NCBI GenBank assembly: GCA_963704755.1
Contig: OY969938.1
Location: 3,750,001 to 3,782,000, forward strand
Length of the DNA stretch: 32,000 nt
DNA from: an uncultured Chloroflexia bacterium
GTDB taxonomy: Bacteria > Chloroflexota > Anaerolineae > Anaerolineales > Anaerolineaceae
Direction of reading: 5' to 3'
In this document: one piece after another, positions 7,646-27,663 of the stretch
How positions within the stretch are numbered: the first letter of the stretch is position 1
Layout of the letters: each line of letters starts with the position of its first letter
The notes under the pieces: model-generated
Told to the model about the DNA's origin: nothing
Database searches by the model: none
Seen by the model: only the letters and a program-made list of their open reading frames with translations
Made by a program: the position numbers and the translations under genes

Positions 7646-7662
7646 GCCAGATAGGGCAGCCA

Positions 7663-8256: not shown

Positions 8257-8294
8257 AATTATCTCTCTGTTGGGACTAAATTGGCATGATGCGA
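8160..8294 (-). repeat. 135-bp hairpin-bearing repeat, copy A (inverted partner at 17214-17348)
   Basis: Contains the perfect 21-bp-stem palindrome TTTTGAGTGTTATTGTGGGGC-GTA-GCCCCACAATAACACTCAAAA (8214-8258). The reverse complement aligns with 17214-17348 with about 8 mismatches by hand alignment. Confidence 0.8.
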
Positions 8295-8364
8295 CTGCCT
8301 TGTTGGCGATCCGGTAGCGATTTCATCGGTTTTGCTCCCCCTGGAATTCGTAGATTTTGCCAAC

Positions 8365-9693: not shown

Positions 9694-10026
9694 CCTTTGA
9701 AATTATCCGAAGAAATAATTTTTGGGGGATTGGTGAGGCTTTGGCTCACCAATCCCCAGCCTCTATATCCAAAGCTCAAAAAAAGCAAGGTTTTTTCTAC
9801 CTCTTCTAACGTAATCCTTATTTATTTAATGTATAGTATAGGTAATGGAAACATGGGACGGTCCTTATGTGGCTCCGGTGTTCTCCATGCCGTATAAACT
9901 ACTCAGACAGATGAATTACAGTTGCATAACCCGAGCCTGAGTAGTTTTCGGGCTTAATAATTGATAACCAGGCAGCGGGAGGCGTGCCCGCCCGGAATAT
10001 TGTCTCGCGCCAGAAGAGAGGTGGGG

Positions 10027-10731
10027 ATGGTAGATCAATTGGTTATCGAAGCAGTGGATCTGAAAAAGATCTACAGGATGGGGGATGTAGAAGTACAGGC
10101 CTTGCGTGGCGCTTCGCTCAATATTTTGCGTGGCGAAGTTGTTGCCATCATGGGGCCCTCCGGCTCGGGAAAATCGACCCTGATGAATATCCTCGGTTGC
10201 CTGGACCGGCCGACCAGTGGCAAATATGTACTGGATGGCAGCCTGGTCTCGAACCTGCGCGACGACCAACTGGCGATTATCCGCAACCAGAAGGTCGGGT
10301 TCGTATTCCAGAGCTTCAATCTGCTCCCGCGGGCATCGGCCCTGGCCAACGTCGAGCTGCCTTTACGCTACGCCGGCCAGAGCAGCAGCGCCAGAAAGCG
10401 GGCGAAAGCGGTGCTGGAAATCGTCGGCCTGGGTGACCGGCTCCACCACAAACCAGCCGAGCTCTCGGGCGGCCAGCAGCAGCGGGTGGCGATCGCCCGT
10501 GCGCTGATCAACGACCCGGCCATCGTGATGGCTGACGAGCCAACCGGTAACCTGGATTCGAAGTCCGGGGCGGAGATCATGGAGCTGATCTTGACCCTCA
10601 ACAAGGAGCAGGGCACAACCGTAATCGTCGTCACCCACGACCCGCGCATTGCCGAACAAACTCAGCGGATCATTCACCTGTACGATGGTGTGGTCGTCGA
10701 AAACGAGCCGGAGTTCGACGTGGTTGGGTAG
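10027..10731 (+). CDS. ABC transporter ATP-binding protein (MacB/LolD/FtsE-like)
   Basis: Walker A GPSGSGKST, signature LSGGQQQRVAIARAL, Walker B IVMADEPTGNLD and H-loop VVTHD. ATG at 10027 after GAGGTGGGG; the track ORF begins further upstream at 9961. No adjacent FtsX-type permease. Confidence 0.93.
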   Translation: MVDQLVIEAVDLKKIYRMGDVEVQALRGASLNILRGEVVAIMGPSGSGKSTLMNILGCLDRPTSGKYVLDGSLVSNLRDDQLAIIRNQKVGFVFQSFNLLPRASALANVELPLRYAGQSSSARKRAKAVLEIVGLGDRLHHKPAELSGGQQQRVAIARALINDPAIVMADEPTGNLDSKSGAEIMELILTLNKEQGTTVIVVTHDPRIAEQTQRIIHLYDGVVVENEPEFDVVG

Positions 10732-10800
10732 CTCGGGTTTCAAACCCGAGGGAAGGCCAGCGCGGGTAAATTCTGGCTTTGAAAGCCGGGCTGAACTCGA
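10724..10800 (+). repeat. solo partial copy of the 153-bp tandem-repeat unit
   Basis: GGTAGCTCGGGTTTCAAACCCGAGGGAA ... CTGGCTTTGAAAGCCGGGCT matches the first ~75 nt of the units at 12495/12648/12801. It overlaps the ABC ATPase stop codon (TAG 10729-10731). Confidence 0.6.
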
Positions 10801-10818
10801 TGAGGCCTTTAGTTTTGG

Positions 10819-11769
10819 TTACAGCAAAACAGGTTTCAGGAATTCGGATATCTGCGTGCCGATCTGGCGGGCGTAGAACGCCACGCTGGCATGGCCGCAG
10901 GGATACCAGAGCATTGGCGGCTCATTCCAGGCGCGGAACAGGCGGGTGGCGTTGCGCGGAGTGATGATCGGGTCGTGTTCGCCTGCCACCAGCAGAATCC
11001 GCTCGCGATCGATGCGCGGTTTCCAGTTGCCCGGGGCCATCACCCGCCACCAGTCTTCCAGGTCGGCCTGGGTGATGCCTTTGGCTTTCAATTCGCTGCG
11101 GATCAGACGAAACGAGAAGCCTGCCCAAATCACGTCGGCCAGGCTGTAGCCGCCCAGTAACGATATCAGCGCATCCGGGCGCTCATCCACCGTGGCGGCC
11201 ATGCAGGAAGTAAACGCCCCCAGGGATAGCCCGGCGATGGCCACTTTTTGGCCCTTGACCACTTTGAGGTAGGTGATCATCGAGCGCAGGTCCAGCACAC
11301 CCTGGCGAAAGGACTGGATGGTGCGCTCCAGATCGGCGCTCATGGCGTACATGCCCGACCAGGTACCGTGCGGACGGCGGCGCATGTGGTAGGGCAGGGT
11401 CAGGTAATAGATATCCACCCCGGCGCGGGCAATCTCTTCGGCGAACCACTTGAGCGGCTCGAAGCTGTGCATCTCATAGCCATGCAGCAGGATCAACGCT
11501 GCCGGAGCGTCACCCTTTTGCTGCAAATCGGCCAATCCGTGGACGATGTTATTGCGCGGGTGGGGTGATTGATAGCGGCTGGGAAAACGAAAGTGGACGT
11601 GCGTGCGGCCGTCCAGCCATTTGTAGATCTCGTCCATCTCGATCTCAGGCGGAGCGGGTGGAATGGTAAAGAGTTCGCCGGGATTACCGATAAACCCGTC
11701 CGAAAGTTCACGGGAAACGTGTTGGTACTGGGGCGGGGAAATAATGAGCCGGCCCGATCCCACGGTCAA
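10819..11769 (-). CDS. alpha/beta-fold hydrolase
   Basis: 316-aa ORF with nucleophile elbow GLSLGA (GxSxG), an oxyanion-region HG in LILLHGY, and late D/H candidates (GEHDPI, CGHAS). Start uncertain. Confidence 0.85.
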   Translation of the reverse strand: MTVGSGRLIISPPQYQHVSRELSDGFIGNPGELFTIPPAPPEIEMDEIYKWLDGRTHVHFRFPSRYQSPHPRNNIVHGLADLQQKGDAPAALILLHGYEMHSFEPLKWFAEEIARAGVDIYYLTLPYHMRRRPHGTWSGMYAMSADLERTIQSFRQGVLDLRSMITYLKVVKGQKVAIAGLSLGAFTSCMAATVDERPDALISLLGGYSLADVIWAGFSFRLIRSELKAKGITQADLEDWWRVMAPGNWKPRIDRERILLVAGEHDPIITPRNATRLFRAWNEPPMLWYPCGHASVAFYARQIGTQISEFLKPVLL

Positions 11770-11812
11770 TTCGATGACATTATCGATCAGGTGTGCAATC
11801 GTACGAATTCAT

Positions 11813-12211
11813 TTAAAGGGTTTGCTTTTTCTGGTCCAGGCGCTCATTGAACTGCTTTTGGTTGATGATGAACCGTTCGTGCTCGCCCTCACCGATCTTG
11901 TCCACCGCATCCCAGGCCTCGACTTTGAAGCGCAGCCGGCGGCGGTCCACTTCCAGCAGCTCAGCGCGGAAGCGTACCTGCATCCCCACCGGTGTGGCGG
12001 CCAGGTGACGGATGGTGACCGACATGCCCACGCTGCCCTGGCCTTCTTCCAGATAGGGTTCGATGGCCTGGTGTGCGGCGCGTTCCATGAATCCGATCAG
12101 GCGCGGTGTGCTGAACACTTCCGGGAAGGACTCGCCGCCGGAATAGCGGGCCGTATCCTCAGGCTGGACGGTGATGGTTAGTTCTTTGGTTAAACCGGGT
12201 TCGAGTGGCAT
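11813..12211 (-). CDS. hotdog-fold thioesterase (FlK/thioesterase-superfamily-like)
   Basis: 132-aa ORF. The pattern TITV..EDTA...G....VFSTP.LIGFME.AA is typical of small hotdog thioesterases. GAGGAAG RBS. It sits 44 nt upstream of the hydrolase on the same strand. Confidence 0.8.
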   Translation of the reverse strand: MPLEPGLTKELTITVQPEDTARYSGGESFPEVFSTPRLIGFMERAAHQAIEPYLEEGQGSVGMSVTIRHLAATPVGMQVRFRAELLEVDRRRLRFKVEAWDAVDKIGEGEHERFIINQKQFNERLDQKKQTL

Positions 12212-12235
12212 AGCTGCATCTTCCTCTGGTTATGT

Positions 12236-12284
12236 TTTCATGTTTCCATTCTGGCAGCTTTGCTGCCAGAATGGAAACATGAAA
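12236..12284. other. long perfect hairpin (23-bp stem, 3-nt loop)
   Basis: TTTCATGTTTCCATTCTGGCAGC-ttt-GCTGCCAGAATGGAAACATGAAA, between the thioesterase start and the tandem array. TTTTT follows 4 nt later on the + strand. Confidence 0.7.
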
Positions 12285-12349
12285 CGACTTTTTGTATTTA
12301 AAAACGAACGATGGTTGATTTTACCAGAAGCGGGGTGAAACCTCACTTT

Positions 12350-12985
12350 TTTAGGGCTCCGGGCTTTCGCTCGACGACCCTGGTAGCCCGGCATTCAAAG
12401 CCGGGTTCTTTGTCGATGTCGAAGAGCGGGCTCGGTCTGGAGACCGGCCCGAACGCCGGCGGGAAACCGTCTTGGAGGGCAAGCGCCGGGGCGTGGTAGC
12501 TCGGGTTTCAAACCCGAGGGAACCTATGCCTGGGCGCATTCCGGTTTTCAAAGCCGGGTTCTTTGCCAAAATGGAAGAGCGGGCTCGGTCTGGAGACCGG
12601 CCCGAACGCCGGCGGGAAACCGTCTTGGAAGGCAAGCGCCTGGGTGTGGTAGCTCGGGATTCAAACCCGAGGGAACCTCCGCCTGGGCGCATTCCGGTTT
12701 TCAAAGCCGGGTTCTTTGTCGATGTCGCAGAGCGGGCTCGGTCTGGAGACCGGCCCGAACACCGGCGGGAAGCCGTCTTGGAAGGCAAGCGCCAGGGTAG
12801 GGTAGCTCGGGTTTCAAACCCGAGGGAACCTCGGCCTGGGCGCATTCCGGCTTTCAAAGCCGGGTTCTTTGCCAAAATGGAAGAACGGGCTCGGTCTGGA
12901 GACCGGCCCGAACGCCGGCGGGAAGCCGTCTTGGAAGGCAAGCGCCGGGGATTGGTAGCTCGGGTTTCAAACCCGGGGGAACGCT
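12350..12985. repeat. 153-bp tandem repeat array, about 4.2 copies with A/B alternation (306-bp higher-order period)
   Basis: GGTAGCTCGGG recurs at 12495, 12648, 12801 and 12954, an exact 153-nt spacing. A degenerate unit precedes 12495. Each unit has three hairpins: CTCGGGTTTCAAACCCGAG, CCGG(T/C)TTTCAAAGCCGG and CGGGCTCGGTCTGGAGACCGGCCCG. One segment alternates between TCGATGTCG(A/C)AGAG and CCAAAATGGAAGA(G/A). Confidence 0.9.
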
Positions 12986-13060
12986 TGACTGGTTTTGGAC
13001 AAGGGTAGCATTTATGGAGCCGGTTTTGCCCGGATTGACAGGCGCTCGCCCTCACCCCAA

Positions 13061-13086
13061 CCCCTCTCCCAGAAGCGGGAGAGGGG
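13061..13086 (-). terminator. GC-rich hairpin downstream of the large membrane-protein gene
   Basis: CCCCTCTCCC-agaagc-GGGAGAGGGG, a 10-bp stem, 100 nt past the stop at 13187. No clear U-tract, so terminator function is uncertain. Confidence 0.35.
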
Positions 13087-13186
13087 CTAAGAATCCCCCT
13101 GGCCCCGGCAGGCGCAAGTTAACGCCTTCTCTGTATAGAACAGGTCCTAAAAGTGAATATGCTTCTATGGCCTAAAATATGGCCTT

Positions 13187-15016
13187 CTAGCGTGTAAAAA
13201 AGGCAGCGATCTGGGCATACAACCGGGGATTATTGGCCATGAAGCGCTGGTCGGGGGCCTGGAAGGCGGCCAGCAGGCTGATGCTGATCGAAACGACGAT
13301 CAACATCACAGCGGCCAGGTGGAGCAGTACCCGCCAGTACGGGTGGGACGGGCTGGCGCGGAGCTGGTGGGCCGTCCAATACCAGCCGATCGCCGCGACC
13401 ACCACCAACAGCGGGGTCGCGTCGGCCAGGTAACGCATGGTGCTAAAGATAAAGATCAGGATGGTGAAAAACGCCAGCAAAGCCCCGCCGCCGGCCAGGA
13501 GAACCAGCCAGGAAAGGACCCGAGAGGCGACCAGCCCGGCCGGGGCCGGCCGCTCGTGGAGCCAGGCGGTGAATCGCCGCAGAGATCCGCTCAATGGCGC
13601 CAGGCCGATGAGAACCGCCGGGGTGCTCAAGAGGAGGCCGCTAACCGGTTCGGCATAGACGTAATTCGGGGGCGGTTGAATGAAGAAAGGCCAGCTCGTT
13701 TGCTTCAGGAAGGGGGTAAACAGGAAGGGAAATTCATGCCAGTGAATCAGGAGCGGCCGGAAGGCGTAGTTGTATAGATTGGGAACCAGGTAAGCCAGGG
13801 AGGTGGTCAGGCTGTAATCTGCCGGCAAGGACAGGCCGGTAAGCTGGTAGCGGTGTCCGGTCTCGAGAATCGAGCCGAAACGGGCAAAGTTATACCAGGC
13901 CATCCCGGCCGCGAAGATGCCCAGCGGGACAAGCAGGCTGGCCAATAAGGCTATCTTTTTCCTCAGGCTGGACTGCTTGTCGATCCAGGCCAGCCAGGCC
14001 ACAGCCAGCAGCACGAACAAGATGATCTCGATGGCCAGGTCCACCCGGCTGTTGGCGGCCAGTCCCCAGGAGATGCCGGCCAGGACCAGGAAAACCGGCC
14101 GGGCCGGTGGCTGCGCCAGCCCGCGCAAGAAGAGCGCCAGCCCGAGAATCAAAAAGCACTGTCCGGAGGCAATGGCGGTTTCGTATACGTCCGGCCGGTT
14201 GATCAGCCAGAGCATGGGCAGGGCCAGCCCGCCCAACAGGGCCAACGGAAAGAGCGGCCAGGCGGGTGAGCGGCTGAAAAAGAGTTTGCGGATCAGCCAG
14301 AGCAGCCAGGTAAAGGCCAGGGCGAACCCGGCCATGAAACCCAAAAGAAGATATTGGTCCTCGACCACGACCGGGACGATCGCTTTGACCAGCGCCGCGA
14401 ATAGAGCCGGGACCGGCCCGAAATAGAGGTAGTAATTGCCATTGTAAAGCGATGCGTCCCAAAGGACCGGGATGCCCTCGCGGTTGTGATAATCGTAGGG
14501 CTGGGCCAGGGCGAGCAGCTCGGCCGAAGGCTTTTCGATCAAAGAGAGCTGCCCATGCAGAAAACCGTCGGCCAGTTGGTCGTAATAATGCGAGTAAGGC
14601 GTCCAGGTGCCCCAGGTGCCGGCGGTGATATACCAAAAATAACTTATCAGAACGATGGCCGCGCCGGCGTAACTATAGGACAACCCGCGGCGGTTCAAGC
14701 GGCTTTCATCCGCAAGCCGAACGGAGCCGCGACCGTCTATGGAAACGCCCAGGCGATCCAGGCGGGCAGCGATCGCCAGCCAGCCGGCAGTTGTTTTGAT
14801 TTTGGCCATAAGCCGGCCGAGCTGGCGATGAAGGGTCAATAGCAAAAACAGCACCAGGGCCAGGCTGCCCAGGATAAAGGTGATAATCCGCCCGCGGCCC
14901 CAGCCCGGGTCATTGTCAATGCCCAATTGAACAGCAAAGATACTTCCGAGGGTGAATGAAATTCCGAAGAGAAGCGAGAGGCCTTGCAAGATGAGACGGG
15001 CGATTTTTACTCGCAA
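13187..15016 (-). CDS. large polytopic membrane protein, possibly a GT-C/ArnT-PMT-like glycosyltransferase
   Basis: More than 12 hydrophobic segments. The track ORF (to 15292) overlaps the upstream SBP gene in another frame and has an Arg/Pro-rich non-protein-like head. The in-frame TTG at 15016 (MRVKIARLILQGL...) lies 20 nt after the SBP stop. Confidence 0.65.
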   Translation of the reverse strand: MRVKIARLILQGLSLLFGISFTLGSIFAVQLGIDNDPGWGRGRIITFILGSLALVLFLLLTLHRQLGRLMAKIKTTAGWLAIAARLDRLGVSIDGRGSVRLADESRLNRRGLSYSYAGAAIVLISYFWYITAGTWGTWTPYSHYYDQLADGFLHGQLSLIEKPSAELLALAQPYDYHNREGIPVLWDASLYNGNYYLYFGPVPALFAALVKAIVPVVVEDQYLLLGFMAGFALAFTWLLWLIRKLFFSRSPAWPLFPLALLGGLALPMLWLINRPDVYETAIASGQCFLILGLALFLRGLAQPPARPVFLVLAGISWGLAANSRVDLAIEIILFVLLAVAWLAWIDKQSSLRKKIALLASLLVPLGIFAAGMAWYNFARFGSILETGHRYQLTGLSLPADYSLTTSLAYLVPNLYNYAFRPLLIHWHEFPFLFTPFLKQTSWPFFIQPPPNYVYAEPVSGLLLSTPAVLIGLAPLSGSLRRFTAWLHERPAPAGLVASRVLSWLVLLAGGGALLAFFTILIFIFSTMRYLADATPLLVVVAAIGWYWTAHQLRASPSHPYWRVLLHLAAVMLIVVSISISLLAAFQAPDQRFMANNPRLYAQIAAFFTR

Positions 15017-15035
15017 CAGGCTGCCTTTTGCGGAA

Positions 15036-16505
15036 TTACTTTTGGGCTTGAGCGACCTCGTCGATGGTGGCGTCCAACTGGCTGAGGATGGTCGGAATCT
15101 GACTGGCCGGCAGATAGCTTTGCAGCGACTGCCAGGCGGCGTCTCCCAGCACCAGGCGGGCCACCCGCCAGTCGCTGACGGTCGGTGCAGCCTGGGCCAG
15201 GGGGATCCATTCGATGGTCTTTGACCATTGCGGGTAGGTCTGTCCGTAGGAGCCGGCCAGTTGGGCAGCCCCGCTGCTGACCGGCAGGCCACCGCCGGCT
15301 TCGAGCAGTTGCAGTTCTTTCTGGGGGTCGGTCATCCAACGAATGAACAGCCAGGCGGCCAGCTCCTGGGCAGGTGTCGATTTCAGCACCCCGTAAGACA
15401 GGCCGCTGACTACCACGGTGGGTTTTTCGGTCCCGGGGTAAGGCAGCACGGTCCATTTATCCTGGTTCTTCTGTTGGGCCATGGCTTCGGTTTGGGAGGG
15501 AATGTCCAGCAGGCTGCCGGTGTAGAACAGGGTCTCACGATCGGCAAAGTAGCCGGCTGCATCGCCGGTACGGGCCGACCAGGCGCAGCCTGCATCCACC
15601 AGGCCGCGCAGGTATTCGAACGCCTGGCGGGTGGCGGGCTGTTCCAGGGTAATCGTGGGCGGGTCGCCTTTCAAGGCGCTATCCAATCCAAAGGCTTTGA
15701 TCCAGGCGTAGATGTCCAGCCCGTCGGTGTCCACAATCCAACCGCCGGTGCCGTCGTTGTCGCGGCCGGAATCGCTGTTGTTGGCCTGGGCCGCGGCGCA
15801 GGCCTGGGTTTCCAGGTCGGCCGTGCTGGCCGGCGGCTGGCTGAAGCCTAACTCGGCCGCCCAGGTGAGGTTGTAGTAGATAACCGGGGCGCTGCGCTGG
15901 AAGGGGATACCGAGCTGGTAGCCGTCGGTCTGGTCCTGCTGCCAGAAAACTAACGGGAAATCGGCCCGCTGTTGTTCGTCCAGGCCCCAGGTAGGGTCGT
16001 TGATGTAATCGTTGAGCACCACCACCCGGTTGCCCTGATCGTACCAGTTCTGTAAATCTTCCGAGGGAGCGATGACCAGTTGAGGGTAAATATCGGTGCC
16101 GGCGGCGGTTACGAGCTGCTGCTCCAGCACGCTGCTGGAACCGGGCTGTTTGACCTGGACGTGGATGCCCCATTCATTGGCCTGGTTGAACGAATCCACG
16201 AACTGGTTGATCCGGTCGCCCAGTGCGCCGGTCCAGGGATGCCAGAAGATGACCTGGGCGCCTTGAAGGTCCGCCAGCGGCACCAGGAAGGCCGGGGTGG
16301 GGGTAAGGGTACTGGTCGAGATGGGCCGGGGCGTGCGGGTAGGGACGGGCGTATCGCTGGGTTGAACTTCTCCCCCCTTATCCGCCGGAAATAAAGGCAG
16401 GCAGCCGGAAAGGATCAGGCTGGCCAGAACCAGGCTGGTGAGGAGCGCGGCTGTTCGAGCGGGTAAGGTGTGTTTGGACATAACATCAGGCCGGGTGCGG
16501 TTCAA
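15036..16505 (-). CDS. ABC transporter substrate-binding lipoprotein (family-1 extracellular solute-binding protein)
   Basis: Lipobox LILSGC followed by a Thr/Pro linker and a typical sugar-type SBP body. The likely start is the ATG at 16481 (MSKHTL...); the track start at 16505 is a TTG overlapping the NUDIX stop. No permease or ATPase adjacent. Confidence 0.88.
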   Translation of the reverse strand: MNRTRPDVMSKHTLPARTAALLTSLVLASLILSGCLPLFPADKGGEVQPSDTPVPTRTPRPISTSTLTPTPAFLVPLADLQGAQVIFWHPWTGALGDRINQFVDSFNQANEWGIHVQVKQPGSSSVLEQQLVTAAGTDIYPQLVIAPSEDLQNWYDQGNRVVVLNDYINDPTWGLDEQQRADFPLVFWQQDQTDGYQLGIPFQRSAPVIYYNLTWAAELGFSQPPASTADLETQACAAAQANNSDSGRDNDGTGGWIVDTDGLDIYAWIKAFGLDSALKGDPPTITLEQPATRQAFEYLRGLVDAGCAWSARTGDAAGYFADRETLFYTGSLLDIPSQTEAMAQQKNQDKWTVLPYPGTEKPTVVVSGLSYGVLKSTPAQELAAWLFIRWMTDPQKELQLLEAGGGLPVSSGAAQLAGSYGQTYPQWSKTIEWIPLAQAAPTVSDWRVARLVLGDAAWQSLQSYLPASQIPTILSQLDATIDEVAQAQK

Positions 16506-17128
16506 TCAAAATCGGTAGGCAAGTCGGGGTCGTGCAGGTGCTCGAAAAAGCGCTCGATTTCTTCCTGGCTCACCCGCGCGATCGAGAGCGGCGGGATTTC
16601 ATCCGGGCCGTAAAACTCGGCTCCGCCGGTTTCGATGCTGGTAGTAGCTTCACCGCCGATCAGATCGCACAGCACGAATATTTTGTAGATATGGAAGATG
16701 TAGGGGGTATGGTGATGCCTGGGGTCGTTGCGGTCGTACACCGCCAGGACTTTGCGCGCCTTGACCAGGTAGCCCGATTCCTCGCGGACTTCGCGTTCGA
16801 CCGCATGGCTGAGCGGCTCACCCACGTCCACCCAACCGCCAGGCAGGGTCCAGCCGCCATCGATCAATTCCTTGACCATCAAAATTTTGCCGTCTTTGAA
16901 GACCACCCCACGGCCATCCAGTTTGGGGGTGGCGTAGCCGGCTTCGTTCCTGAAAGAAGCCAGGATAGGTTCGAATTCGGATTGTCCATATTCCGCAGCG
17001 ACCTGTGCGGATATTTCCTGCAGGGTGCGAAAGCGTTCGATGTCAAATGGGTTTTGGGTGTACGCCAGCCCATCCTGGGCGATGGCCTGCACCTGCTGGA
17101 CCCAATCCAGCCATTTTGGTGTCGTCAT
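16502..17128 (-). CDS. NUDIX hydrolase with N-terminal NUDIX-associated domain
   Basis: Nudix box GGWVDVGEPLSHAVEREVREESG. The N-terminal WLDWVQQVQAIAQDGLAYTQNPFDIERF is typical of the Nudix_N domain. Confidence 0.92.
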   Translation of the reverse strand: MTTPKWLDWVQQVQAIAQDGLAYTQNPFDIERFRTLQEISAQVAAEYGQSEFEPILASFRNEAGYATPKLDGRGVVFKDGKILMVKELIDGGWTLPGGWVDVGEPLSHAVEREVREESGYLVKARKVLAVYDRNDPRHHHTPYIFHIYKIFVLCDLIGGEATTSIETGGAEFYGPDEIPPLSIARVSQEEIERFFEHLHDPDLPTDFD

Positions 17129-17459: not shown

Positions 17460-18041
17460 ATGGCCAGGCCACAAGAATTCGAAACAAGCGAAGTGCTGCG
17501 AAACGCCATGCAAATCTTTTGGAGTAAGGGCTATGAAGCCACTTCACTCAATGATATTCTGGATGCCACTGGCCTGAGTAAAAGCAGTTTGTACGCTTCT
17601 TTTGGCGATAAACGGGCGCTGTTTCTGGCAACCTTCAATGCTTACCGGAAAGAACGAATGTTTCATCTCCATCAAATTCTGAATGACGGCCGGCCAGCTC
17701 GTTTGTCCATCGAAAACTTTTTCCGCCAGGCCCTGGCTCGTTCATTGGATGAGACCTGTGCGAAAGGTTGTATGACGGCTAATGAGGCGGTAGAGCTTGC
17801 TCCTCACGATAATGAAATTCAGCAGATCGTGGCCGAAGATTTTAAAGCCATTGAGGATGCGTTCGCTCAAACGATTGAGCGCGGTCAGTCCGAGGGTTCC
17901 ATTGCCAGCCGGGAGGCGTCCCAAACACTGGCACGCTTTCTCGTCGTCGGGTTGCAAGGACTCGAAGTGATGGCACGTGCTAAAACGGACTATACCCAAC
18001 TCGACGATACCGTGACGGTTATGATGACCGTGTTGGATTGA
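17460..18041 (+). CDS. TetR/AcrR-family transcriptional regulator
   Basis: 193-aa ORF with an N-terminal HTH (FWSKGYEATSLNDILDATGLSKSSLYASFGDK) and a helical C-terminal ligand domain. Confidence 0.93.
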   Translation: MARPQEFETSEVLRNAMQIFWSKGYEATSLNDILDATGLSKSSLYASFGDKRALFLATFNAYRKERMFHLHQILNDGRPARLSIENFFRQALARSLDETCAKGCMTANEAVELAPHDNEIQQIVAEDFKAIEDAFAQTIERGQSEGSIASREASQTLARFLVVGLQGLEVMARAKTDYTQLDDTVTVMMTVLD

Positions 18042-18065
18042 CCGTCCTCTTTTTTTAAGGTAATT

Positions 18066-18083
18066 TTGGACTGCATGGTCCAA
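18066..18083. promoter_or_regulatory. second TTGGAC-N6-GTCCAA palindrome between tetR and the oxidoreductase gene
   Basis: TTGGACtgcatgGTCCAA, with the same half-sites and spacing as 17409-17426. Confidence 0.5.
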
Positions 18084-18176
18084 TACAAGACATCCAGAAA
18101 TAGGATGACGTCCATCGCAAACTGAATTTTAGTTTACTGGGTGGATCACATTTTGAACTTCAAATGAGGAAAAAAC

Positions 18177-18593
18177 ATGAATAATCCGAACAATTGGAAC
18201 CAGGCAATCATTGAAGAATTTCGAGCCAACTCCGGAAAAGTTGGCGGAGGATTCGCCGGGAGAACCCTGCTTCTCCTGCATACGATTGGAGCCAAGAGTG
18301 GCCAGGAACGCATCAATCCGGTCGCCTATGTTGCCGATGGTGATCGTCTCGTGATCATTGCATCCAAAGGTGGGGCGCCGACCAATCCCAGTTGGTACTA
18401 CAACCTGCTCGCGCATCCGCTTGTTACTGTCGAAGTCGGGGAAGAACGATTTAACGTTCAGGCAGCGGTCACGTCCGAACCCGAACGGAGTCGGTTGTAT
18501 AGCAAAATGGTTGAGATGATGCCAGGCTTTGCGGAGTACGAGCAGAAAACCAGCCGGATTATCCCGGTGATCATTTTAACGCGCGTTCCTTAA
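18177..18593 (+). CDS. deazaflavin (F420)-dependent nitroreductase-family oxidoreductase (DUF385)
   Basis: 138-aa ORF with the pattern WN..IIEEFRAN.GKVGG.F.G..LLLLHT.GAKSG..R.NPV and the hallmark NPSWYYNLLAHP. Confidence 0.88.
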   Translation: MNNPNNWNQAIIEEFRANSGKVGGGFAGRTLLLLHTIGAKSGQERINPVAYVADGDRLVIIASKGGAPTNPSWYYNLLAHPLVTVEVGEERFNVQAAVTSEPERSRLYSKMVEMMPGFAEYEQKTSRIIPVIILTRVP

Positions 18594-21861: not shown

Positions 21862-22287
21862 CTAACCCCCGAATAAACCGAAGTTGTTGATAAGCAAGCT
21901 GCGCAGCATCCAGGCCGCAGCCGGCAGCCAGATCACAATCGAGGCCACCAGGGCAACCATAGTGGATTTGCGCTGGCTGTCCGGCACCCACAGGTTGGGC
22001 TTGAAGATATCGAAATAAGCCACGCGTAAGCCGTTCAACCCGTGATAAATCACGCAGTACACCAGGATGATTTCGCCGATGCCAAATAAGGTGGTCTGGT
22101 ACACCTTGACGGCGCTCATGAACAGGCTGGGATCGAAATAGACGAACGCAATATCCAGGATATGAATGGTCAGGAATAATATGGTTCCCAGGCCGGTGAT
22201 GCGATGGAGCAGGAAAGACCAGTGACCCTCCCGGCCGCGATAAGTCGCGTAGCCAGTCAGGGTCGTCTTGAGTGTTGACATGTTCAC
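21862..22287 (-). CDS. sdhC: succinate dehydrogenase cytochrome b subunit
   Basis: 141 aa, 3 TM, with the SdhC-type WSFLLHRITGLG motif. First gene of the sdhCDAB operon. Confidence 0.8.
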   Translation of the reverse strand: MNMSTLKTTLTGYATYRGREGHWSFLLHRITGLGTILFLTIHILDIAFVYFDPSLFMSAVKVYQTTLFGIGEIILVYCVIYHGLNGLRVAYFDIFKPNLWVPDSQRKSTMVALVASIVIWLPAAAWMLRSLLINNFGLFGG

Positions 22288-22340
22288 CTCCGTAAGACCA
22301 AAGATTCGCGTTTTTTAGATGGATGAAATTTTTTCGATGA

Positions 22341-22355
22341 ACTTGCCGGGCAAGT
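22341..22355. promoter_or_regulatory. palindrome ACTTGCC-g-GGCAAGT in the sdh leader/promoter region
   Basis: 7-bp arms, 54 nt upstream of the sdhC start. A TATACT-like hexamer (rc of about 22400-22410) lies further upstream. Confidence 0.3.
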
Positions 22356-22475
22356 CACAAAAAATGGGACAGAACAAATAATAAACTTATTTTATGCTTA
22401 AGTATAGTAAAACGATAGAATTTTTCCAGTAAGTTAAGGATGATATTTGGATTAACCCGTTGCGGGGGAGGAATG

Positions 22476-22520
22476 AACCACGGAGGCACGGAGAAAAGAA
22501 AGAGAAGAAGAGAAAAAATA
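22476..22520 (+). repeat. island-boundary motif, copy 1 (AACCACGGAGGCACGGAG + purine tract)
   Basis: AACCACGGAGGCACGGAGAAAAGAAAGAGAAGAAGAG... matches the reverse complement of 26906-26948, except for one missing AGCACGGAG unit. Confidence 0.75.
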
Positions 22521-22535
22521 TAGAAAGAGCATTGT

Positions 22536-22625
22536 CGTAGGGTGCGTTTGAGGGCTGACTTCCCCGGCGCCGGCGGATCACCAGGCCATTTGTCCGCACT
22601 GGCGTGCCCGGAACGCACCCTTACG
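22536..22625. repeat. GC-rich REP-like inverted repeat embedded in AT-rich DNA
   Basis: CGTAGGGTGCGTT (22536-22548) pairs with AACGCACCCTTACG (22612-22625) around a GC-rich spacer of about 60 nt. It starts with GTAGGG, like the REP at 7428. Confidence 0.55.
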
Positions 22626-22644
22626 GCACAGACTTTATAAATAA

Positions 22645-22681
22645 AACCACGGAGGCACGGAGAGCACGGAGGAGAAAAAAG
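22645..22681 (+). repeat. island-boundary motif, copy 2
   Basis: AACCACGGAGGCACGGAGAGCACGGAGGAGAAAAAAG. The first 27 nt are identical to the reverse complement of 26922-26948. Confidence 0.75.
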
Positions 22682-22730
22682 ATTTTAAGGAGTTTAGGAC
22701 GAAAAAAAAAGTTTGGTTGAAAGCGGATCA

Positions 22731-23261
22731 CTACGACCTCATCTTATTTGACCAAACTTTCAACTGCCTTTTTTCCCGCTTTACTAAAACAGCTCTCCAA
22801 ACCAGATCAAAGGCTAAAATCGCCATTTCGAAATTAAACCGTAGACGTGGATCGTTCTTTTCTTCGTCTGTACAGTAATCCGGTCCCAACCACGGCAGCT
22901 GCATACATAAGTCATGGATCTTTTGATTCTTGAAGTCTATCCCTTTCCACTTATGGCCAAACTCATTCCTGATTTTACGGACAATATTTATTTCCCGGTA
23001 TTCGTTTTCCTGGATCAGTCCTAAACTATAGGCGGCGGACAACCGTGAGGAGAATGTACCCAGCGGTGCATTCATCCCTTCCAACAATTCTTTTGAAGTC
23101 GGGACATCGGCAAAAAAGGCAAATAAAACATCATGCAACTGCTCATCTAAAAGCGATGCAGCGACTAAAGCCGCCCCTCGGTCGCTCTCATTATTAAACT
23201 CATTGAGGAAATTACTCAATTCCTTATATTCTGGGATCAGCTCAGGCTGCTTTTCTTCCAT
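22731..23261 (-). CDS. HEPN-domain protein, MtlR/DUF4145-like
   Basis: 176 aa. The N-terminal ESDRGAALVAASLLDEQLHDVL is an MtlR-like helix. RKIRNEFGH contains RNEFGH, an Rx4H HEPN motif. Confidence 0.65.
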   Translation of the reverse strand: MEEKQPELIPEYKELSNFLNEFNNESDRGAALVAASLLDEQLHDVLFAFFADVPTSKELLEGMNAPLGTFSSRLSAAYSLGLIQENEYREINIVRKIRNEFGHKWKGIDFKNQKIHDLCMQLPWLGPDYCTDEEKNDPRLRFNFEMAILAFDLVWRAVLVKREKRQLKVWSNKMRS

Positions 23262-23372
23262 TTGTCACCACCCGTTTTGGATGACTCTATTGTACTCAGA
23301 ATTAAAAACAGACTACAATTTATAGAACCAAACTGATTTTTTCCGTTTTTTAAACTAAAGCTTGGAGGAACT

Positions 23373-24215
23373 GTGGACTTCATTGAAGTTTCAAGAGATG
23401 GCACTATATCCATTGATGATTCAGACCACGAAATATTACCAATCCTTGAGGCGTTCGGAACCTTGATTGAGAAAAATGGCTTTGACCACTTAAGCATTGC
23501 TTGTGGTGTTAGTCCTAGTCCTGATTTTGGATACTTTGAGCTGGCTGACCGTTTTTGGCGTGCTTCTCTTTGTATTTATGCGCTTGGAGCAACCAAATGT
23601 TTTTGGGAAAGTGGTGCAGGTTATTCCGAGCCATGGTTGTTCAATGCCCGTCATGCGGTGGAGTTATACATTAAAGGCTTTTTGGTAAATACAATTTGGC
23701 TGGAAGAACTACAAAGCAGTGCTCATTTAACAATCCGCAAAGTGGAGTTTTCTAATCTCAAGAAGGAGTTCGGAAAACCTCATAAATTAATTGAGATTTA
23801 CGACCTTTATACTACTCGTCTTTCACAGGTTCTTAGCAATTGGAACCTCGATGCTATGCCAGAAGTGCCAGATATGAATAGTCTGATTTTAGGAACAGAC
23901 GAAAAGGAAATGTTGGAGGAGCTTGATAAATCAGACGAGACCAGTTTTCGGTTTCGGTATCCCAGTCTCAAGCAAGGTAATACCGAGGCACTTCAACAGA
24001 TCGATTGGCATCACGACTCAACCAAAATACTTCCAAAGACAGGATTGCCTTCAGAGGCAGGTTATTTCTTCAACCATATTTCAGTGATTAACAACCTCTA
24101 CAAGATGGTTAGTGAACTAAAAAAAATAAAAGAGTACTTTGAGGGAATAACCCTTTATCAGGATGTTATGAACGACTACTGGAACGAGTCGTTAGGTGAT
24201 TTATACGGTTTGTAA
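23373..24215 (+). CDS. hypothetical protein with a classic HEPN-like helical pattern
   Basis: 280 aa, GTG start after GGAGG. NARHAVELYIKGFL ... FGKPHKLIEIYDLY ... SFRFRYPS resembles the QAvEkaLKa / tHdL..L / RYP pattern of PF05168-type HEPN domains. No clean Rx4-6H was seen. Confidence 0.5.
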   Translation: MDFIEVSRDGTISIDDSDHEILPILEAFGTLIEKNGFDHLSIACGVSPSPDFGYFELADRFWRASLCIYALGATKCFWESGAGYSEPWLFNARHAVELYIKGFLVNTIWLEELQSSAHLTIRKVEFSNLKKEFGKPHKLIEIYDLYTTRLSQVLSNWNLDAMPEVPDMNSLILGTDEKEMLEELDKSDETSFRFRYPSLKQGNTEALQQIDWHHDSTKILPKTGLPSEAGYFFNHISVINNLYKMVSELKKIKEYFEGITLYQDVMNDYWNESLGDLYGL

Positions 24216-24274
24216 ACATAATGCGTCTTAAATTTCATTTCGGCAATTTTCTGTTTTCTAAAAAGGAAGTAACC

Positions 24275-24856
24275 ATGGAAAGGCCTGCCCAGACTGATTT
24301 CAATGCCTTTATGCAAAATGCAGTAGAAACATTGCGTAAGAATATGGACGCATATCCGGCTTTTGATCCTTTAAGACCTTATGAAGAGAAAAATCAATAT
24401 TTTTTGGAATTAGCCAGCATGGGTGAGACGATTTTAAAACGGACGAGGAATTATCCTGCTGGGGAGATATTTTTCAGCGTGCTAAAGAAAGAAATTTTGG
24501 ATTACGAGCGAGCAAATAACAAGGTTTTTAATAAAGGAATGGTCTACGCCGATCTAGGAATTGCCCTGATAGCAAATGGGAAACTAGATGCTGGTGTAGC
24601 TCACCTATTAGCTGCTGATGAAGAAGATCGCCCATTTGTTCACGATGCACATGGCATTTTAAATTCACCCCTTTGGCGACAGTTTGAGAGACCTGTCATT
24701 TTTGATTATCTTACTGGTTTCAATACCGATCCGAATGCAGGTTTAAATTTTCAAGTAGATGAAGCATTTTTAGAGAAATTCTTAACCATTTGGACTTGCA
24801 GGACGGCCTATTCCTCGAAGCAACCATTTGGGCTTTACGTGACAATATGGCTTTAA
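24275..24856 (+). CDS. hypothetical protein (N-terminal part of a possibly frameshifted ~340-aa protein)
   Basis: ATG at 24275 after AGGAAG; the track ORF starts at 24221. There is a TPR-like stretch GMVYADLGIALIANGKLDAGVAHLLAA. The last ~23 aa (TIWTCRTAYSSKQPFGLYVTIWL) look out of frame. Confidence 0.6.
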   Translation: MERPAQTDFNAFMQNAVETLRKNMDAYPAFDPLRPYEEKNQYFLELASMGETILKRTRNYPAGEIFFSVLKKEILDYERANNKVFNKGMVYADLGIALIANGKLDAGVAHLLAADEEDRPFVHDAHGILNSPLWRQFERPVIFDYLTGFNTDPNAGLNFQVDEAFLEKFLTIWTCRTAYSSKQPFGLYVTIWL

Positions 24857-25299
24857 ATACGCTGAATCCGAACACATATACCAGAGGAAGGCTTTACTCA
24901 GGAATAAAAGATTTATGCCTTTTAACAGAATCGCTTTTACGAAAGCACCAGATTGCACATGGTTTGGTAAATGCTAATCAACAAATCATGCTAGCAAACT
25001 TACTCATATCAGCTTTGAGAAATGCAAATATAAACTATCCCCAACAGAACTTAGCAACAGGAGCCAATAACCTCCAAGAATTTGTAAACGGTCTAGAAGA
25101 CAATTTGAATAACGCCATTAGCCCCGAAATCCGAAGAATTTATTGTTTACGCTTAATCCGGAACTTTACAGGACACCACTTTGATTTGACTGATACTGTT
25201 GTTTCGCCTTCTGGAAGAACATTTTTTGATATGTATCAATCATCATTAGTGAACGTACTTTCAGCCATTCTATATCTTTATCACATTGGCGAAATATAG
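24790..25299 (+). CDS. HEPN-motif protein (RNFTGH); either the C-terminal part of the previous ORF or a separate gene starting at ATG 24848
   Basis: CLRLIRNFTGHH contains RNFTGH, an Rx4H motif. This frame is open from 24763 and reads ...NHLDLQDGLFLEATIWALRDN, which continues naturally from ...EAFLEKFL of the upstream ORF. Confidence 0.6.
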   Translation: MDLQDGLFLEATIWALRDNMALNTLNPNTYTRGRLYSGIKDLCLLTESLLRKHQIAHGLVNANQQIMLANLLISALRNANINYPQQNLATGANNLQEFVNGLEDNLNNAISPEIRRIYCLRLIRNFTGHHFDLTDTVVSPSGRTFFDMYQSSLVNVLSAILYLYHIGEI

Positions 25300-25313
25300 A
25301 GAACCATTTCAAA

Positions 25314-26216
25314 TTACGGCTGACGCCAAAAACGTACATTACTTCTAAAACCGATTTCATCAAAAACCCGTTCTAATAACCCTTCGACCTCCTGCATATC
25401 CCAGCCGTAGTATTTCCCGATGGTCCAGAAAATCCTAGCAAAAGTTGGTATTGCCAGGTTTATTCCAAAGAGCATCATTTCCGGGTGGAGATGTTTTTCC
25501 ACTGCTTTTATTTTCTGACCATTGACATCGGTTGTCTCGACAAGCTTAAAACCAACTTGCCTTGTTGCCCAAAGGTAACTGTGAGCGACGCTCGATAACA
25601 ACCGATATTCTGACTCCATGTTTAAAACTATTTTTACAAGCCCGACTGTTTCTGGCATGTGGGTGGCGATCCCGGTTAACTTTCCGTTCTTGGATAACTG
25701 TGGATAACCCAGGGCAATAGCTTTGTTTTCGACTACGGCCATTCTTTTATTCATCTTATCTATTTCGATCTTGGCGGCAGGCTCATTGACTCTATCCGCT
25801 TCAAAAAACTTGATCTGTTCTTTAAATTCTTTATAGCGAAACCCAAAACACCTTCCTACTCGTTCCCTTGCATCAATATTTAAGTCCAGAAGCCACAGTA
25901 CGAGCGCCGATGATTCTAAGAGACTGCGGAGGCAGGTATAGGGTGACAATGTTTTAGCCGGCTCCTGAAGAGTACAACTAAAGGCCATAAGGTGGTCAGC
26001 TGCGTTTTCAAAGCAAAGGGATGCTCGTGCATACACATCTATGACCAATTCTCTATCTGCAAAGCTATTCATCTCTTTAAATGCTATCGAGTTGGCGACT
26101 GGTTGATTTTCGTATTTGTTGATTATTTCTGCTGACCCATCGATAAATCTGTTCATGGCCGCAATCATTTTTACGAGAACTTCGGCTGGTGACATTGAAG
26201 GTTGGGAATTAGGCAT
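25314..26216 (-). CDS. hypothetical helical protein (300 aa) with a possible Rx6H motif
   Basis: Clean ORF, convergent with the previous gene (14-nt gap). EYRLLSSVAHSYLW contains R-x6-H. I recognise no family. Confidence 0.55.
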   Translation of the reverse strand: MPNSQPSMSPAEVLVKMIAAMNRFIDGSAEIINKYENQPVANSIAFKEMNSFADRELVIDVYARASLCFENAADHLMAFSCTLQEPAKTLSPYTCLRSLLESSALVLWLLDLNIDARERVGRCFGFRYKEFKEQIKFFEADRVNEPAAKIEIDKMNKRMAVVENKAIALGYPQLSKNGKLTGIATHMPETVGLVKIVLNMESEYRLLSSVAHSYLWATRQVGFKLVETTDVNGQKIKAVEKHLHPEMMLFGINLAIPTFARIFWTIGKYYGWDMQEVEGLLERVFDEIGFRSNVRFWRQP

Positions 26217-26333
26217 ATTGGAAACCCTCCGGATATGTAAAAAAAATTATATCCCCAATAACTGTTGAGGCAGGCATTGAAGGTATCAAAAATTACAATA
26301 TGCTATACTCTTTTAGTTTTTAAAAACATATAT

Positions 26334-26771
26334 ATGGGTGAAAGACTAAGAACATATATAAGAGAAGGGCAACCACCAGAAATACCAGGTGGAGTTCTGA
26401 TTACCAATCCCAAAGATCAAAGCAAAGTACAACCTGTTATTACTGAATACGCTGAAGGGGCTAAGGATTGGGAATACTCGGAACAAGTGAAGTTTTTAAA
26501 TCGTTGGGCTGGAATTTTCAAAGAACGACTATTAGACCCAGTAGCAGTACCAGGCAAGCCGGCTCTTCCTGATCCTGTTATTGGCTTTGAGAAGATGAGG
26601 GTTGAAACCTTGGCAGCCTATACCCTCAATCGAAACAACCACGGGCTTCTTTACGAGATCAACTTTAACACCGTTCACATGTTGGACGATCGCTGCTGGC
26701 GGCATATAATCTTGGACGTTGGGTTTCTTGTTGGTTTCGTTGTTGGCGGTCATGGATTGCCTCTGTATTAA
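26334..26771 (+). CDS. hypothetical protein; the N-terminus resembles the pre-HExxH part of SprT-like zincins and is probably truncated
   Basis: FLNRWAGIFKERLL....LPDPVIGFEKMRVETLAAYTL.....GLLYEINFN resembles the SprT-like N-terminal pattern. No HExxH follows, and the tail LDVGFLVGFVVGGHGLPLY looks like read-through into unrelated DNA. Confidence 0.35.
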   Translation: MGERLRTYIREGQPPEIPGGVLITNPKDQSKVQPVITEYAEGAKDWEYSEQVKFLNRWAGIFKERLLDPVAVPGKPALPDPVIGFEKMRVETLAAYTLNRNNHGLLYEINFNTVHMLDDRCWRHIILDVGFLVGFVVGGHGLPLY

Positions 26772-26905
26772 GAACTCCTTGATTGTTTCGCCGTTCCATT
26801 TACACAAAGCATCTTACACCCTCGTTGAAAACGGATCGGCCCGGTCTCTCCCTCCATTCTGTCGGCTGAGGCCGCTTTATGTCATTGTTCTTTTTAACCG
26901 TAATT

Positions 26906-26948
26906 CCTCTTCTTTTCTTTTCTCCGTGCTCTCCGTGCCTCCGTGGTT
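26906..26948 (-). repeat. island-boundary motif, copy 3 (inverted)
   Basis: CCTCTTCTTTTCTTTTCTCCGTGCTCTCCGTGCCTCCGTGGTT is the reverse complement of AACCACGGAGGCACGGAGAGCACGGAGAAAAGAAAAGAAGAGG. Confidence 0.75.
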
Positions 26949-27078
26949 AATATCTCTTAACTATTCTTTGAAATTAAACTCAATATTAATTTTCGGTTAC
27001 AATATGGGTTGAAATTACCGGGCGGCAGGGATTCGTCCCTCAACCCACAACAACCTCTACGAATACAGGCATTCGCTA

Positions 27079-27663
27079 ATGAAACTTAAGTTAGCCCGGG
27101 CCATCAATGTGCTGGGGTTTTCTCCGATCCTGGCGCTGATCTCGATTTCGATAATTTATGGGTTGAAGCCGGATGTTTACGGTGGGCAGGCATTCTGGTA
27201 TATCTACACGATTGCATTTTTAGCCATCATCCCCATCACGGCCATCCTGCTCGAATTTCTTTGGATTTATCGAATCAAGAGGGAAGAGAACCGCACACCT
27301 TTTGTTTCGTTCTGGGTCAGTCTGTTTTCCTTTGCCATTGGCAGCCTGGGCTGCCTGATCTATGATTCACCCCACGCGGTGCTGGCCATATTCGCGGCAT
27401 ACCTGGCGACCGGGGTTGTGGTGGCGCTGCTCAAGCGCTCGCCCGAATCACCGGTCTCGATCTATGCCGCCGGGGTTGGCGGGGCCATTATGCTGCTGGT
27501 CTATTTCCTTAACTGGTGGTGGGCATTGGGTTTCTTGCTGATTATCCTGGTGGGGTGGTCACGGATGGTGACGGCGCACCTGTCCTTTACCCAGGTATTA
27601 GCCGGGGGGCTGGCTGGCGCGGCAATGACCGCGGTCAGCCTGTTTGTTTTTTACGCAATGTAA
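27079..27663 (+). CDS. integral membrane protein (weakly PAP2-like)
   Basis: 194 aa, about 6 TM segments. WSRMVTAHLSFTQVLAG loosely resembles the PAP2 SR-x5-H-x3-D motif. Confidence 0.6.
   Translation: MKLKLARAINVLGFSPILALISISIIYGLKPDVYGGQAFWYIYTIAFLAIIPITAILLEFLWIYRIKREENRTPFVSFWVSLFSFAIGSLGCLIYDSPHAVLAIFAAYLATGVVVALLKRSPESPVSIYAAGVGGAIMLLVYFLNWWWALGFLLIILVGWSRMVTAHLSFTQVLAGGLAGAAMTAVSLFVFYAM

Follow-up and report, generated by a model that had tools for sequence, protein, structure and literature searches.

A low-G+C island beside the succinate dehydrogenase operon of an uncultured Chloroflexota bacterium: a phage-derived fragment with four independent genes

Introduction

HepS ("HEPN Solo") of the Salmonella prophage Gifsy-1 is a partner-less HEPN anticodon nuclease that is encoded in the prophage accessory region (PMC13043305). 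The protein is produced constitutively as an inactive tetramer, is activated by a siphovirus tail-tip protein and cuts the anticodon loops of tRNAs (PMC13043305). Single-protein HEPN defences such as HEC-08 need the Rx4-6H histidine, and defence functions are over-represented among genes that lie within bacteriophage exclusion (BREX) loci (10.1101/2024.01.29.577857). Partner-less HEPN proteins in prophage accessory regions, as well as cryptic prophage fragments that retain accessory genes, are known kinds. The locus analyzed here is in a 32,000 nucleotide (nt) stretch of DNA, termed the window, from an uncultured Chloroflexia bacterium (GenBank assembly GCA_963704755.1, contig OY969938.1, positions 3,750,001–3,782,000). 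It is a 4.4 kb low-G+C island situated beside the succinate dehydrogenase operon, and it displays five open reading frames (ORFs), A to E; the part of E that is homologous to a phage gene is termed E′. An initial annotation of this DNA had proposed that the five genes form a HEPN-based toxin/defence module. The present analysis compares the island and its genes with the systems described above.

Results

Phage origin of the island

The gene block at positions 22732–26705 of the window has a G+C content of 0.405, and the content is 0.414 over positions 22440–27078, as compared with 0.572 for the remaining window. The fall from ~0.57 to 0.37–0.45 is found at roughly 22.3–27.0 kb.

Phage contigs L014–L017 carry homologues of C (85%), B (82%) and full-length E (84%), which are contiguous and on the same strand, without A or D. 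Downstream of C-B-E are genes for an HNH_3/AP2 endonuclease, the small and large terminase subunits, the portal and a P22-type coat protein. The G+C content of these contigs is 0.40–0.41, which is close to that of the island block. A distant relative of A is also found in a phage, i.e. gp48 of phage KS9, and gp48 sits between replication genes and HNH/terminase genes. This is the same phage region as that of C-B-E in L014. Because the C-B-E homologues are beside terminase genes and the relative of A has a comparable location, the island is considered a fragment of a tailed-phage accessory region, namely the one flanked by replication genes and HNH/terminase genes.

E family proteins are SprT-like zinc metalloproteases of 246–301 amino acids (aa) that have an HExxH motif and a C-terminal zinc ribbon. 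In the window the first ~124 codons of the gene are kept, and it is cut ahead of HExxH; past position 26705 the ORF continues with unrelated sequence up to position 26771. E′ displays 84% identity to a 271 aa phage protein over residues 1–124. Another E homologue, 74% identical, is in a phage or prophage that also has integrase, Rep_O, methylase and terminase genes. The rest of the E gene is absent in every frame of the window, and none of the other genes of the L014–L017 phages is found anywhere in the window. With respect to phage attachment (att) sites, there is no flanking direct repeat and no tRNA gene; only inverted arms with a CACGGAG repeat are present, and these are not phage-specific.

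Contiguous phage homologues, a matching G+C content, a truncated gene, absence from the junction in relatives and the lack of integrase and structural genes are features of a prophage remnant, and all of these are found here. The island is similar to cryptic prophage remnants and to prophage moron regions, in which defence genes are stacked, in its low G+C, its truncated gene, its lack of an integrase and its intact accessory genes that are under selection. It differs from these in that only 4.4 kb is left and in that the same sub-block is found at two chromosomal sites, as described below.

Insertion site and a second copy of the block

In six relatives (SdhA 76–82% identical) sdhC and the NMT1-ABC-permease operon are immediate neighbours in divergent orientation, separated by a spacer of 220–270 nt. 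The sdhC/NMT1 junction in these six has neither the island nor the PAP2-like membrane protein gene that adjoins the island in the window. The six are the nearest relatives recovered but are not close, thus the comparison represents conserved synteny and not a strict empty site. Since the PAP2-like gene is missing from all six, it is a lineage-specific addition beside the island and outside of the phage block.

A second copy of the block is found in GCA_034420235.1, a Chloroflexota-like genome, and in three metagenome contigs (L001–L004 in all), where it is located between a phosphate ABC transporter gene (pstS) and gyrA. There, too, the block is a 0.40 G+C patch within DNA of 0.57 G+C. The gene order is A, B, an intact C, D and a shorter E stump that has ~40 homologous codons. 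The shared DNA is 3.7 kb long with 83% nt identity (positions 22732–26452 of the window and 9764–13487 of L002), and it starts at position 22732, the base following the stop codon of A. The same sub-block has been kept in both copies, but the position of the cut in E differs between them. The two locations show that the block is mobile. Its survival at two chromosomal sites is not easily accounted for by simple decay.

The ratio of nonsynonymous to synonymous substitutions (dN/dS) between the two copies is 0.034 for A, 0.13 for B, 0.12 for C and 0.11 for D, and each of these four genes is under purifying selection. The synonymous divergence (dS) is highest for A (2.07), followed by C (0.97), D (0.81) and B (0.36). 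This is a spread of approximately six-fold, and the history of the two copies therefore seems to be mosaic and phage-like. It points to mosaic, recombining phage lineages as the source of the two islands and not to one recent transfer.

Several statements of the initial annotation relate to these findings. The low-G+C island and the five ORFs in a divergent/convergent layout were found as it had given them, with the same coordinates. Its view that the DNA is foreign agrees with the low G+C, with the six relatives that lack the island at the junction and with presence of the block at another locus elsewhere. On the other hand, it had seen no signature of a mobile element, and this has to be revised in light of the contiguous B, C and E homologues in a tailed phage and of E′, a truncated phage SprT-like gene. 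The membrane protein gene that it termed "core" (PAP2-like, 27079–27663) is missing from the junction in the six relatives.

Independence of genes A to D

B, C and D are each found without the others in other genomes. A solo C homologue in L006 adjoins a gene with a DpnII-MboI domain, and a PIN-domain gene is nearby. In L007/L008 a C homologue is inside a BREX locus, co-directional and located between the CHAT/Pepco genes and pglX, and in L009/L010 a C homologue is between core genes. Solo B homologues are beside REase-ARP genes in L011 and beside SocA_Panacea, DUF4011 helicase and TIR protein genes in L012, which is from a Chlorobiaceae genome. D is found alone in L005, L226 and L227. The G+C content of these solo B, C and D genes is 7–20 points below that of at least one flank in each case.

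The gene order also differs between the phage, which has C-B-E, and the island, which has B-C-D-E, such that the order of B and C is reversed. In addition, comparison of the A, B, C and D families by hhalign displays no mutual relationship. The solo occurrence of B, C and D thus marks them as separate modules and not as parts of one system, and A to D are independent single-gene units that are stacked and do not make up an operon-like system.

The BREX locus mentioned above (L007 positions 1–17056 and L008, with brxA, brxB, brxC and a pglX-like gene) has a dense stack of embedded candidate defence genes. These are on the same strand and encode an S1-domain protein, a CHAT protease, a Pepco-domain peptide, the C homologue and a NERD-kinase. 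Another C homologue (57–74% identical) is at L224 positions 3735–6366, where it is followed by co-directional ORFs of 176 aa and 325 aa without assigned function that are not homologues of A to E. Here a 2.6 kb patch has a G+C content of 0.52 as compared with 0.61–0.63 and lies between core metabolic genes. The L224 patch may be another small stack.

Gene A

The RNEFGH motif of A is at residues 98–103. The A protein matches the Pfam MtlR family (PF05068) at 25.2 bits, which is exactly the gathering cut-off. It also matches the NCBIfam MltR family (E-value = 2.4e-7), the MtlR structure 6kcr (1.4e-4 from the window protein) and phrog_22031 (4.6e-43). A profile made from five A sequences, including the phage relatives, matches MtlR structures with E-values of 1.4e-9 (6kcr) and 3e-6, and it matches HepS (9oij) with an E-value of 1.8e-4. 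In the latter alignment RNxFxH of A is aligned to the HepS sequence IRNKYAH, i.e. to the catalytic residues R100/H105. The distant relatives of A are in phages of Klebsiella, Mesorhizobium and Burkholderia. R98, N99 and H103 are invariant across the phage relatives at identities of 24%–31%. The genes neighbouring A differ from phage to phage (KS9 and the phages of Klebsiella and Mesorhizobium) and also from those in the island, and a scan of IMG/VR gave no A homologue.

These matches identify A as an MtlR-type HEPN protein and as a new, distant member of the MtlR/HepS lineage. Among the island proteins, A is the only one that displays the properties of a HepS-like solo protein: a chain length of 176 aa (less than 250), an Rx4-6H motif, no conserved partner and location in a phage accessory region. 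A role solely as a regulator is unlikely because the catalytic pair is conserved and no mannitol or phosphotransferase system (PTS) genes are in the window.

The similarity to HepS is therefore that of a small, single HEPN protein with RNxxxH and no partner, which is found in a phage accessory region and has a significant profile match. However the alignment spans ~55 residues, A is closer to MtlR, and B, C and D have no link to HepS. The host is enterobacterial in the case of HepS and Chloroflexota-like here, and the tetramer, the trigger and the nuclease activity are known for HepS only. The MtlR/MltR proteins (PF05068; PDB 6kcr and 3brj) are the best sequence match of A. Unlike these, A is in phage-derived DNA with no mannitol/PTS genes near it, and it keeps RNxxxH as its phage relatives do, whereas 3brj shows KLKNHL at the position of RNEFGH.

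Gene C

The C family has 44 members of ~341 aa. R296, N297 and H301, which are in the RNFTGH motif, do not vary among 36 sequences, with identities as low as 37%. The structural model of C (predicted local distance difference test, pLDDT, 91.8) is all-alpha. The N-terminal half is similar to tetratricopeptide repeats (TPR-like), and RNFTGH is in the C-terminal domain. The best fold match is Csm6 (5fsh_B), with a template modelling (TM) score of 0.30 and a non-significant E-value of 2.6. An hhalign comparison of the C and A families aligned the motif helix only (E-value = 0.032). The model and the conservation suggest that C is a helical protein with an invariant Arg/His pair; a HEPN fold is unproven.

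The R[NHQD]xxxH pattern has a background of 0.06 per 300 aa in ordinary genes of the window, and RNFTGH in C as well as RNEFGH in A are thus specific. The bare Rx4-6H pattern has a background of ~0.9 per 300 aa in ordinary genes, thus RLLSSVAH in D is at chance level as a pattern.

Gene B

The B family has 106 members and no annotation. The window B protein displays a similarity to PF05168 with an E-value of 0.016 and 15.8 bits, where the cut-off is 22. PF05168 is matched by 15 of 40 members of the B family (best E-value = 0.0018); all of these matches are below threshold, and no other family recurs. The probable HEPN core encompasses about residues 86–200, with additional N-terminal and C-terminal regions around it. 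The invariant residues of B are EPWLF..RHxxEL..K (R93/H94), H137 and FRFRYP (R193/R195). The B family profile has no relevant match in PDB. B is probably a divergent classic HEPN protein.

B resembles the PF05168 domain of the HEPN-MNT (minimal nucleotidyltransferase) pairs of type II/VII toxin-antitoxin systems. It differs in that there is neither a nucleotidyltransferase gene nor room for one in the island, and in that B is ~280 aa long with extra regions at both ends.

Gene D

The D family has 22 members. R205 and H212 are invariant in 19 sequences, down to 45% identity. DUF5677 (PF18928), a family whose function is not known, is weakly matched by 4 of the 19 D family members, with a best E-value of 0.0044, which is below threshold. 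The window D protein itself has no match to DUF5677 or to the Pfam HEPN clan. The model of D has a pLDDT of 87.8. It suggests a helical protein with an invariant Arg/His pair; a HEPN fold is unproven here as well, and the evidence for D is the weakest of the four.

The IMG/VR scan gave three distant relatives of D. At L143 positions 7129–8873 (IMG/VR UViG_3300028830_000319, a viral contig of 74 kb) there are two tandem D-like paralogues with 26%–28% identity.

Layout of the island and searches for partner genes

The coordinates of the island ORFs, of the adjoining gene and of the repeat arms are in Table 1.

Table 1. Positions in the window of the island ORFs and of associated features.
Feature	Position	Strand	Description
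CACGGAG arm copy 1	22468–22514	+	edge of inserted DNA, outside phage-derived block
G+C-rich spacer	22515–22644	.	~131 nt, long hairpin, between direct arm copies 1 and 2
CACGGAG arm copy 2	22645–22682	+	left arm of 38-nt inverted repeat
Gene A	22731–23261	-	176 aa; MtlR/HepS-like HEPN, stand-alone
Gene B	23373–24215	+	280 aa; uncharacterised family, probable PF05168-like core
Gene C	24275–25299	+	split in two frames; 341 aa when repaired
Gene D	25314–26216	-	300 aa; small uncharacterised family, weakly DUF5677-like
ORF E	26334–26771	+	145 aa; gene E′ part is 26334–26705, SprT-like 5′ remnant
CACGGAG arm copy 3	26911–26948	-	right, inverted arm bracketing block
PAP2-like membrane protein gene	27079–27663	+	Pfam PAP2 E-value 0.0038; G+C 0.54

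The gaps between the five ORFs are 111, 59, 14 and 117 nt and contain no ORF, thus there is no space for an antitoxin ORF. Family and RNA searches of the island and window gave no MNT, cas, restriction-modification (RM), integrase or tRNA gene. None of the island ORFs matches NTP_transf, therefore the adjacent MNT gene that is typical of HEPN-MNT pairs is not found. There are no Rfam matches at an E-value of 1 or less across positions 22250–27100, and no tRNA or tmRNA gene is present there. Integration at a tRNA gene and an RNA antitoxin belonging to any known family were both rejected for these reasons. A promoter and terminator scan was uninformative, with 9 promoter-like sites where 10 are expected.

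Two other families of stand-alone proteins are comparable in part. AbiF/AbiD (Abi_2; PMC12373285) are prophage-borne, single-protein HEPN candidates for abortive infection (Abi) in which the toxin is paired with an RNA antitoxin. However no island protein matches Abi_2 and no abiF RNA motif is found (Rfam, E-value of 1 or less). ApeA, HEC-08 and the "guilt by embedding" candidates (10.1101/2024.01.29.577857) are similar in that they concern stand-alone HEPN proteins and in that a C homologue is in a BREX locus, which is the setting behind the HEC/PDC candidates. They differ in that the PADLOC models, including ApeA and the 2023 HEC/PDC sets, do not match A to D.

Two other low-G+C patches of the window, at positions 17460–18593 and 4624–5644, were considered as phage DNA and rejected, as they have ordinary genes instead. 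The patches encode a TetR regulator, an F420H2-dependent quinone reductase, a DUF6504 protein and a histidine phosphatase fragment.

CACGGAG-repeat arms

The arm core, AACCACGGAGGCACGGAGA, is present in three copies in the window, with 0 expected, and a purine-rich tail follows the core. Arms 2 and 3 are 38 nt long and 92% complementary; the whole island lies between them, at an arm-to-arm distance of 4.2 kb. The spacer at positions 22515–22644 has a folding energy of −52.1 kcal/mol (z = −4.26 versus shuffled sequences) and no Rfam match.

A 19-mer of the arm is found as an exact match in more than 120 stretches of species-representative genomes, where by our estimate ~4 are expected by chance. 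The phyla include Planctomycetota, Verrucomicrobiota, Bacteroidota, Spirochaetota, Acidobacteriota, Chloroflexota and Cyanobacteria. An inverted partner is located at a distance of 11–222 nt in 69 of 127 arm copies, and the sequence enclosed is variable. The usual form is thus a short palindromic element with a variable loop that resembles a miniature inverted-repeat transposable element (MITE). The arms are absent from the second block copy (L002) and from the spacers of the relatives. They have no Rfam family, and a literature search on the arm sequence found nothing. A stop-to-stop ORF test of coding versus intergenic arm copies did not discriminate between these.

Discussion

The best explanation of the locus is that a decayed accessory fragment of a temperate tailed phage is located in the sdhC-NMT1/ABC spacer, which was originally ~250 nt long. 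The fragment carries four independent modules, A to D, under purifying selection, together with the SprT-like 5′ stump. Each protein may act alone, as HepS does, having been brought in by the temperate phage and kept after the prophage decayed. The proteins would be made constitutively and held as inactive oligomers. A protein of an infecting phage would switch the effector on, and cleavage of tRNA or mRNA by the activated effector would abort the infection. If independent, trigger-activated effectors are stacked in this manner, a wider range of phages would therefore be sensed. The probability of this explanation as a whole, i.e. a prophage remnant with four solo modules that encode Abi-type effectors, is put at about 0.5.

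The island is thus a plausible mini defence island and not a new multi-gene system. That its genes encode stand-alone, trigger-activated Abi effectors is suggested by homology in the case of A and by context in the case of B and C. The defence neighbours are BREX genes and the DpnII-MboI and PIN genes in the case of C, and the DUF4011 helicase, TIR and SocA genes in the case of B. RNase activity and a defence function are likewise predicted properties, as is the HEPN fold of C and D.

A number of findings weigh against this explanation. The neighbourhoods that were looked at are few and are not a statistical sample. In the phages, C, B and E share the orientation of the operon around them, an arrangement that is as compatible with lytic-cycle genes as with morons. 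No PADLOC-DB v2 model matches the six ORF translations at an E-value of 1 or less, and the IMG/VR scan gave no homologue of B or of C. B has no Rx4-6H motif. Foldseek searches gave nothing at an E-value below 0.1 for the C model against PDB and BFVD, and nothing significant for the D model against PDB (best E-value = 0.064). Neither the C family profile, nor the C-terminal domain of C alone, nor the D family profile has a relevant match in PDB. One DUF5677 gene has been screened for defence and is not among the five candidates reported as protective (PMC12632615). Lastly, C is interrupted in the window, where a CCC run at ~24788 is one nt short as judged against two homologues. With the base restored the frame is open over 341 codons and dN/dS is 0.12, therefore the deletion is either very recent or a homopolymer sequencing error.

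All of the motif strings of the initial annotation can be found in the translated sequences: ESDRGAALVAASLLD and RNEFGH in A, RNFTGH in C, RLLSSVAH in D, and AVELYIK/HKLIEIY/FRFRYP in B. The assignment of A as a HEPN protein with an MtlR-like helix is borne out by the Pfam, NCBIfam, MtlR-structure and HepS profile matches. B was taken as a classic HEPN protein, and here the strings and the PF05168 similarity in 15 of 40 members agree, but the matches are sub-threshold and the catalytic motif is lacking. The HEPN assignment of C holds as far as an invariant and specific RNFTGH motif and that of D as far as RLLSSVAH with invariant R205/H212; on the other side, C has no significant Foldseek or profile match, and D has a pattern at chance level and no fold match. 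The lack of an MNT gene, an antitoxin ORF, cas/RM genes and an integrase was correctly noted, with gaps of 14–117 nt. The architecture was considered to be one that could not be assigned to a named system. However stand-alone, partner-less prophage HEPN Abi proteins have already been described (HepS, PMC13043305), and the A profile matches HepS. The notion of one HEPN module conflicts with the solo B, C and D genes elsewhere, with the different gene order in the phage and with the four families being unrelated by hhalign.

That the five genes nevertheless form one integrated, multi-component HEPN toxin/defence system, as originally proposed, is highly improbable. It is true that the order A-B-C-D-E′ is the same in two genomes at different loci, and that B and C are neighbours in both the island and the phage, as they probably are in other short contigs. 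But C, B and D are each solo in other genomes, the phage lacks A and D and has the order C-B-E, in which B and C are reversed, the island genes are on both strands, E is a truncated and unrelated metalloprotease gene, and dS ranges from 0.36 to 2.07, a spread that indicates a mosaic history. The main rival is of a different type: B and C, and perhaps A and D, would be lytic-cycle genes that benefit the phage, e.g. in processing of host or phage RNA, in host shut-off or in counter-defence, and the island would be an inert remnant that confers no immunity on the host. This would account for the co-directional location of C-B-E in L014–L017, where the operon runs with short gaps into the HNH/terminase genes, and for the similar placement of KS9 gp48; much of the purifying selection could also have acted while the genes were in phages. 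It is considered unlikely, as intact solo B, C and D genes are found between core genes or in BREX with no other phage genes near them. Moreover, the two genomes with the block have lost all other phage genes, yet A, B and D are intact in both and C in one, and HepS, the nearest characterised relative of A, is a host-protective Abi protein.

Two further alternatives concern the proteins themselves and the mode of arrival. The proteins may not be nucleases at all, with A an MtlR-like regulator, B to D helical scaffolds or otherwise non-catalytic, and the motifs incidental. The best sequence matches of A are mannitol operon repressors, B is without Rx4-6H, the D motif is at chance frequency, and neither C nor D has a fold match. 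Such a role is quite doubtful in view of R98/N99/H103 of A, which are kept at 24%–31% identity and are aligned to the HepS catalytic residues, of the absence of mannitol/PTS genes nearby, and of the invariance of R296/N297/H301 among C sequences down to 37% identity and of R205/H212 among D sequences down to 45%. With respect to arrival, the block may have been the cargo of a non-autonomous element bounded by the inverted CACGGAG arms, in place of prophage integration and decay. The 38-nt arms with 92% complementarity do bracket the block, the 19-mer is widespread (more than 120 stretches) with 69 of 127 copies paired around variable sequence, and the arms are missing from the spacers of the relatives. 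This is nonetheless very unlikely: the second block copy (L002) has no arms, the arms are 50 and ~460 nt outside of the shared DNA, the sequence enclosed elsewhere is at most 222 nt, and no transposase was found.

Beyond the explanation as a prophage remnant with four solo Abi-type genes, a more far-reaching proposal can be made tentatively, with the odds against it. B, C and D would represent three new families of solo effectors carried by phages, HEPN-like or not, with no relation to one another and with a separate trigger for each. Together with A they would form a portable sensor stack, which selection would have preserved twice as a domesticated mini defence island when the remaining prophage was lost. 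Still more speculatively, the CACGGAG arms, which recur across phyla, might be the ends of an unrecognised non-autonomous element that carries kilobase cargo.

Members of the B, C and D families are found in Chloroflexota, Nitrospirota, Chlorobiota and Planctomycetota, and neither Pfam nor NCBIfam nor PADLOC has a model for these families. To our knowledge, defence in these phyla has hardly been studied experimentally. If A to D protect against phages, three unannotated families would join the single-gene defences, and the HepS type of stand-alone HEPN protein would be extended to a distant lineage. The invariant Arg/His pairs are ready-made mutant controls. Without such protection, the locus would simply be a cryptic prophage fragment. 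In both cases the proposal of a new multi-gene HEPN system fails. The locus provides good candidates for the discovery of defence genes in little-studied phyla.

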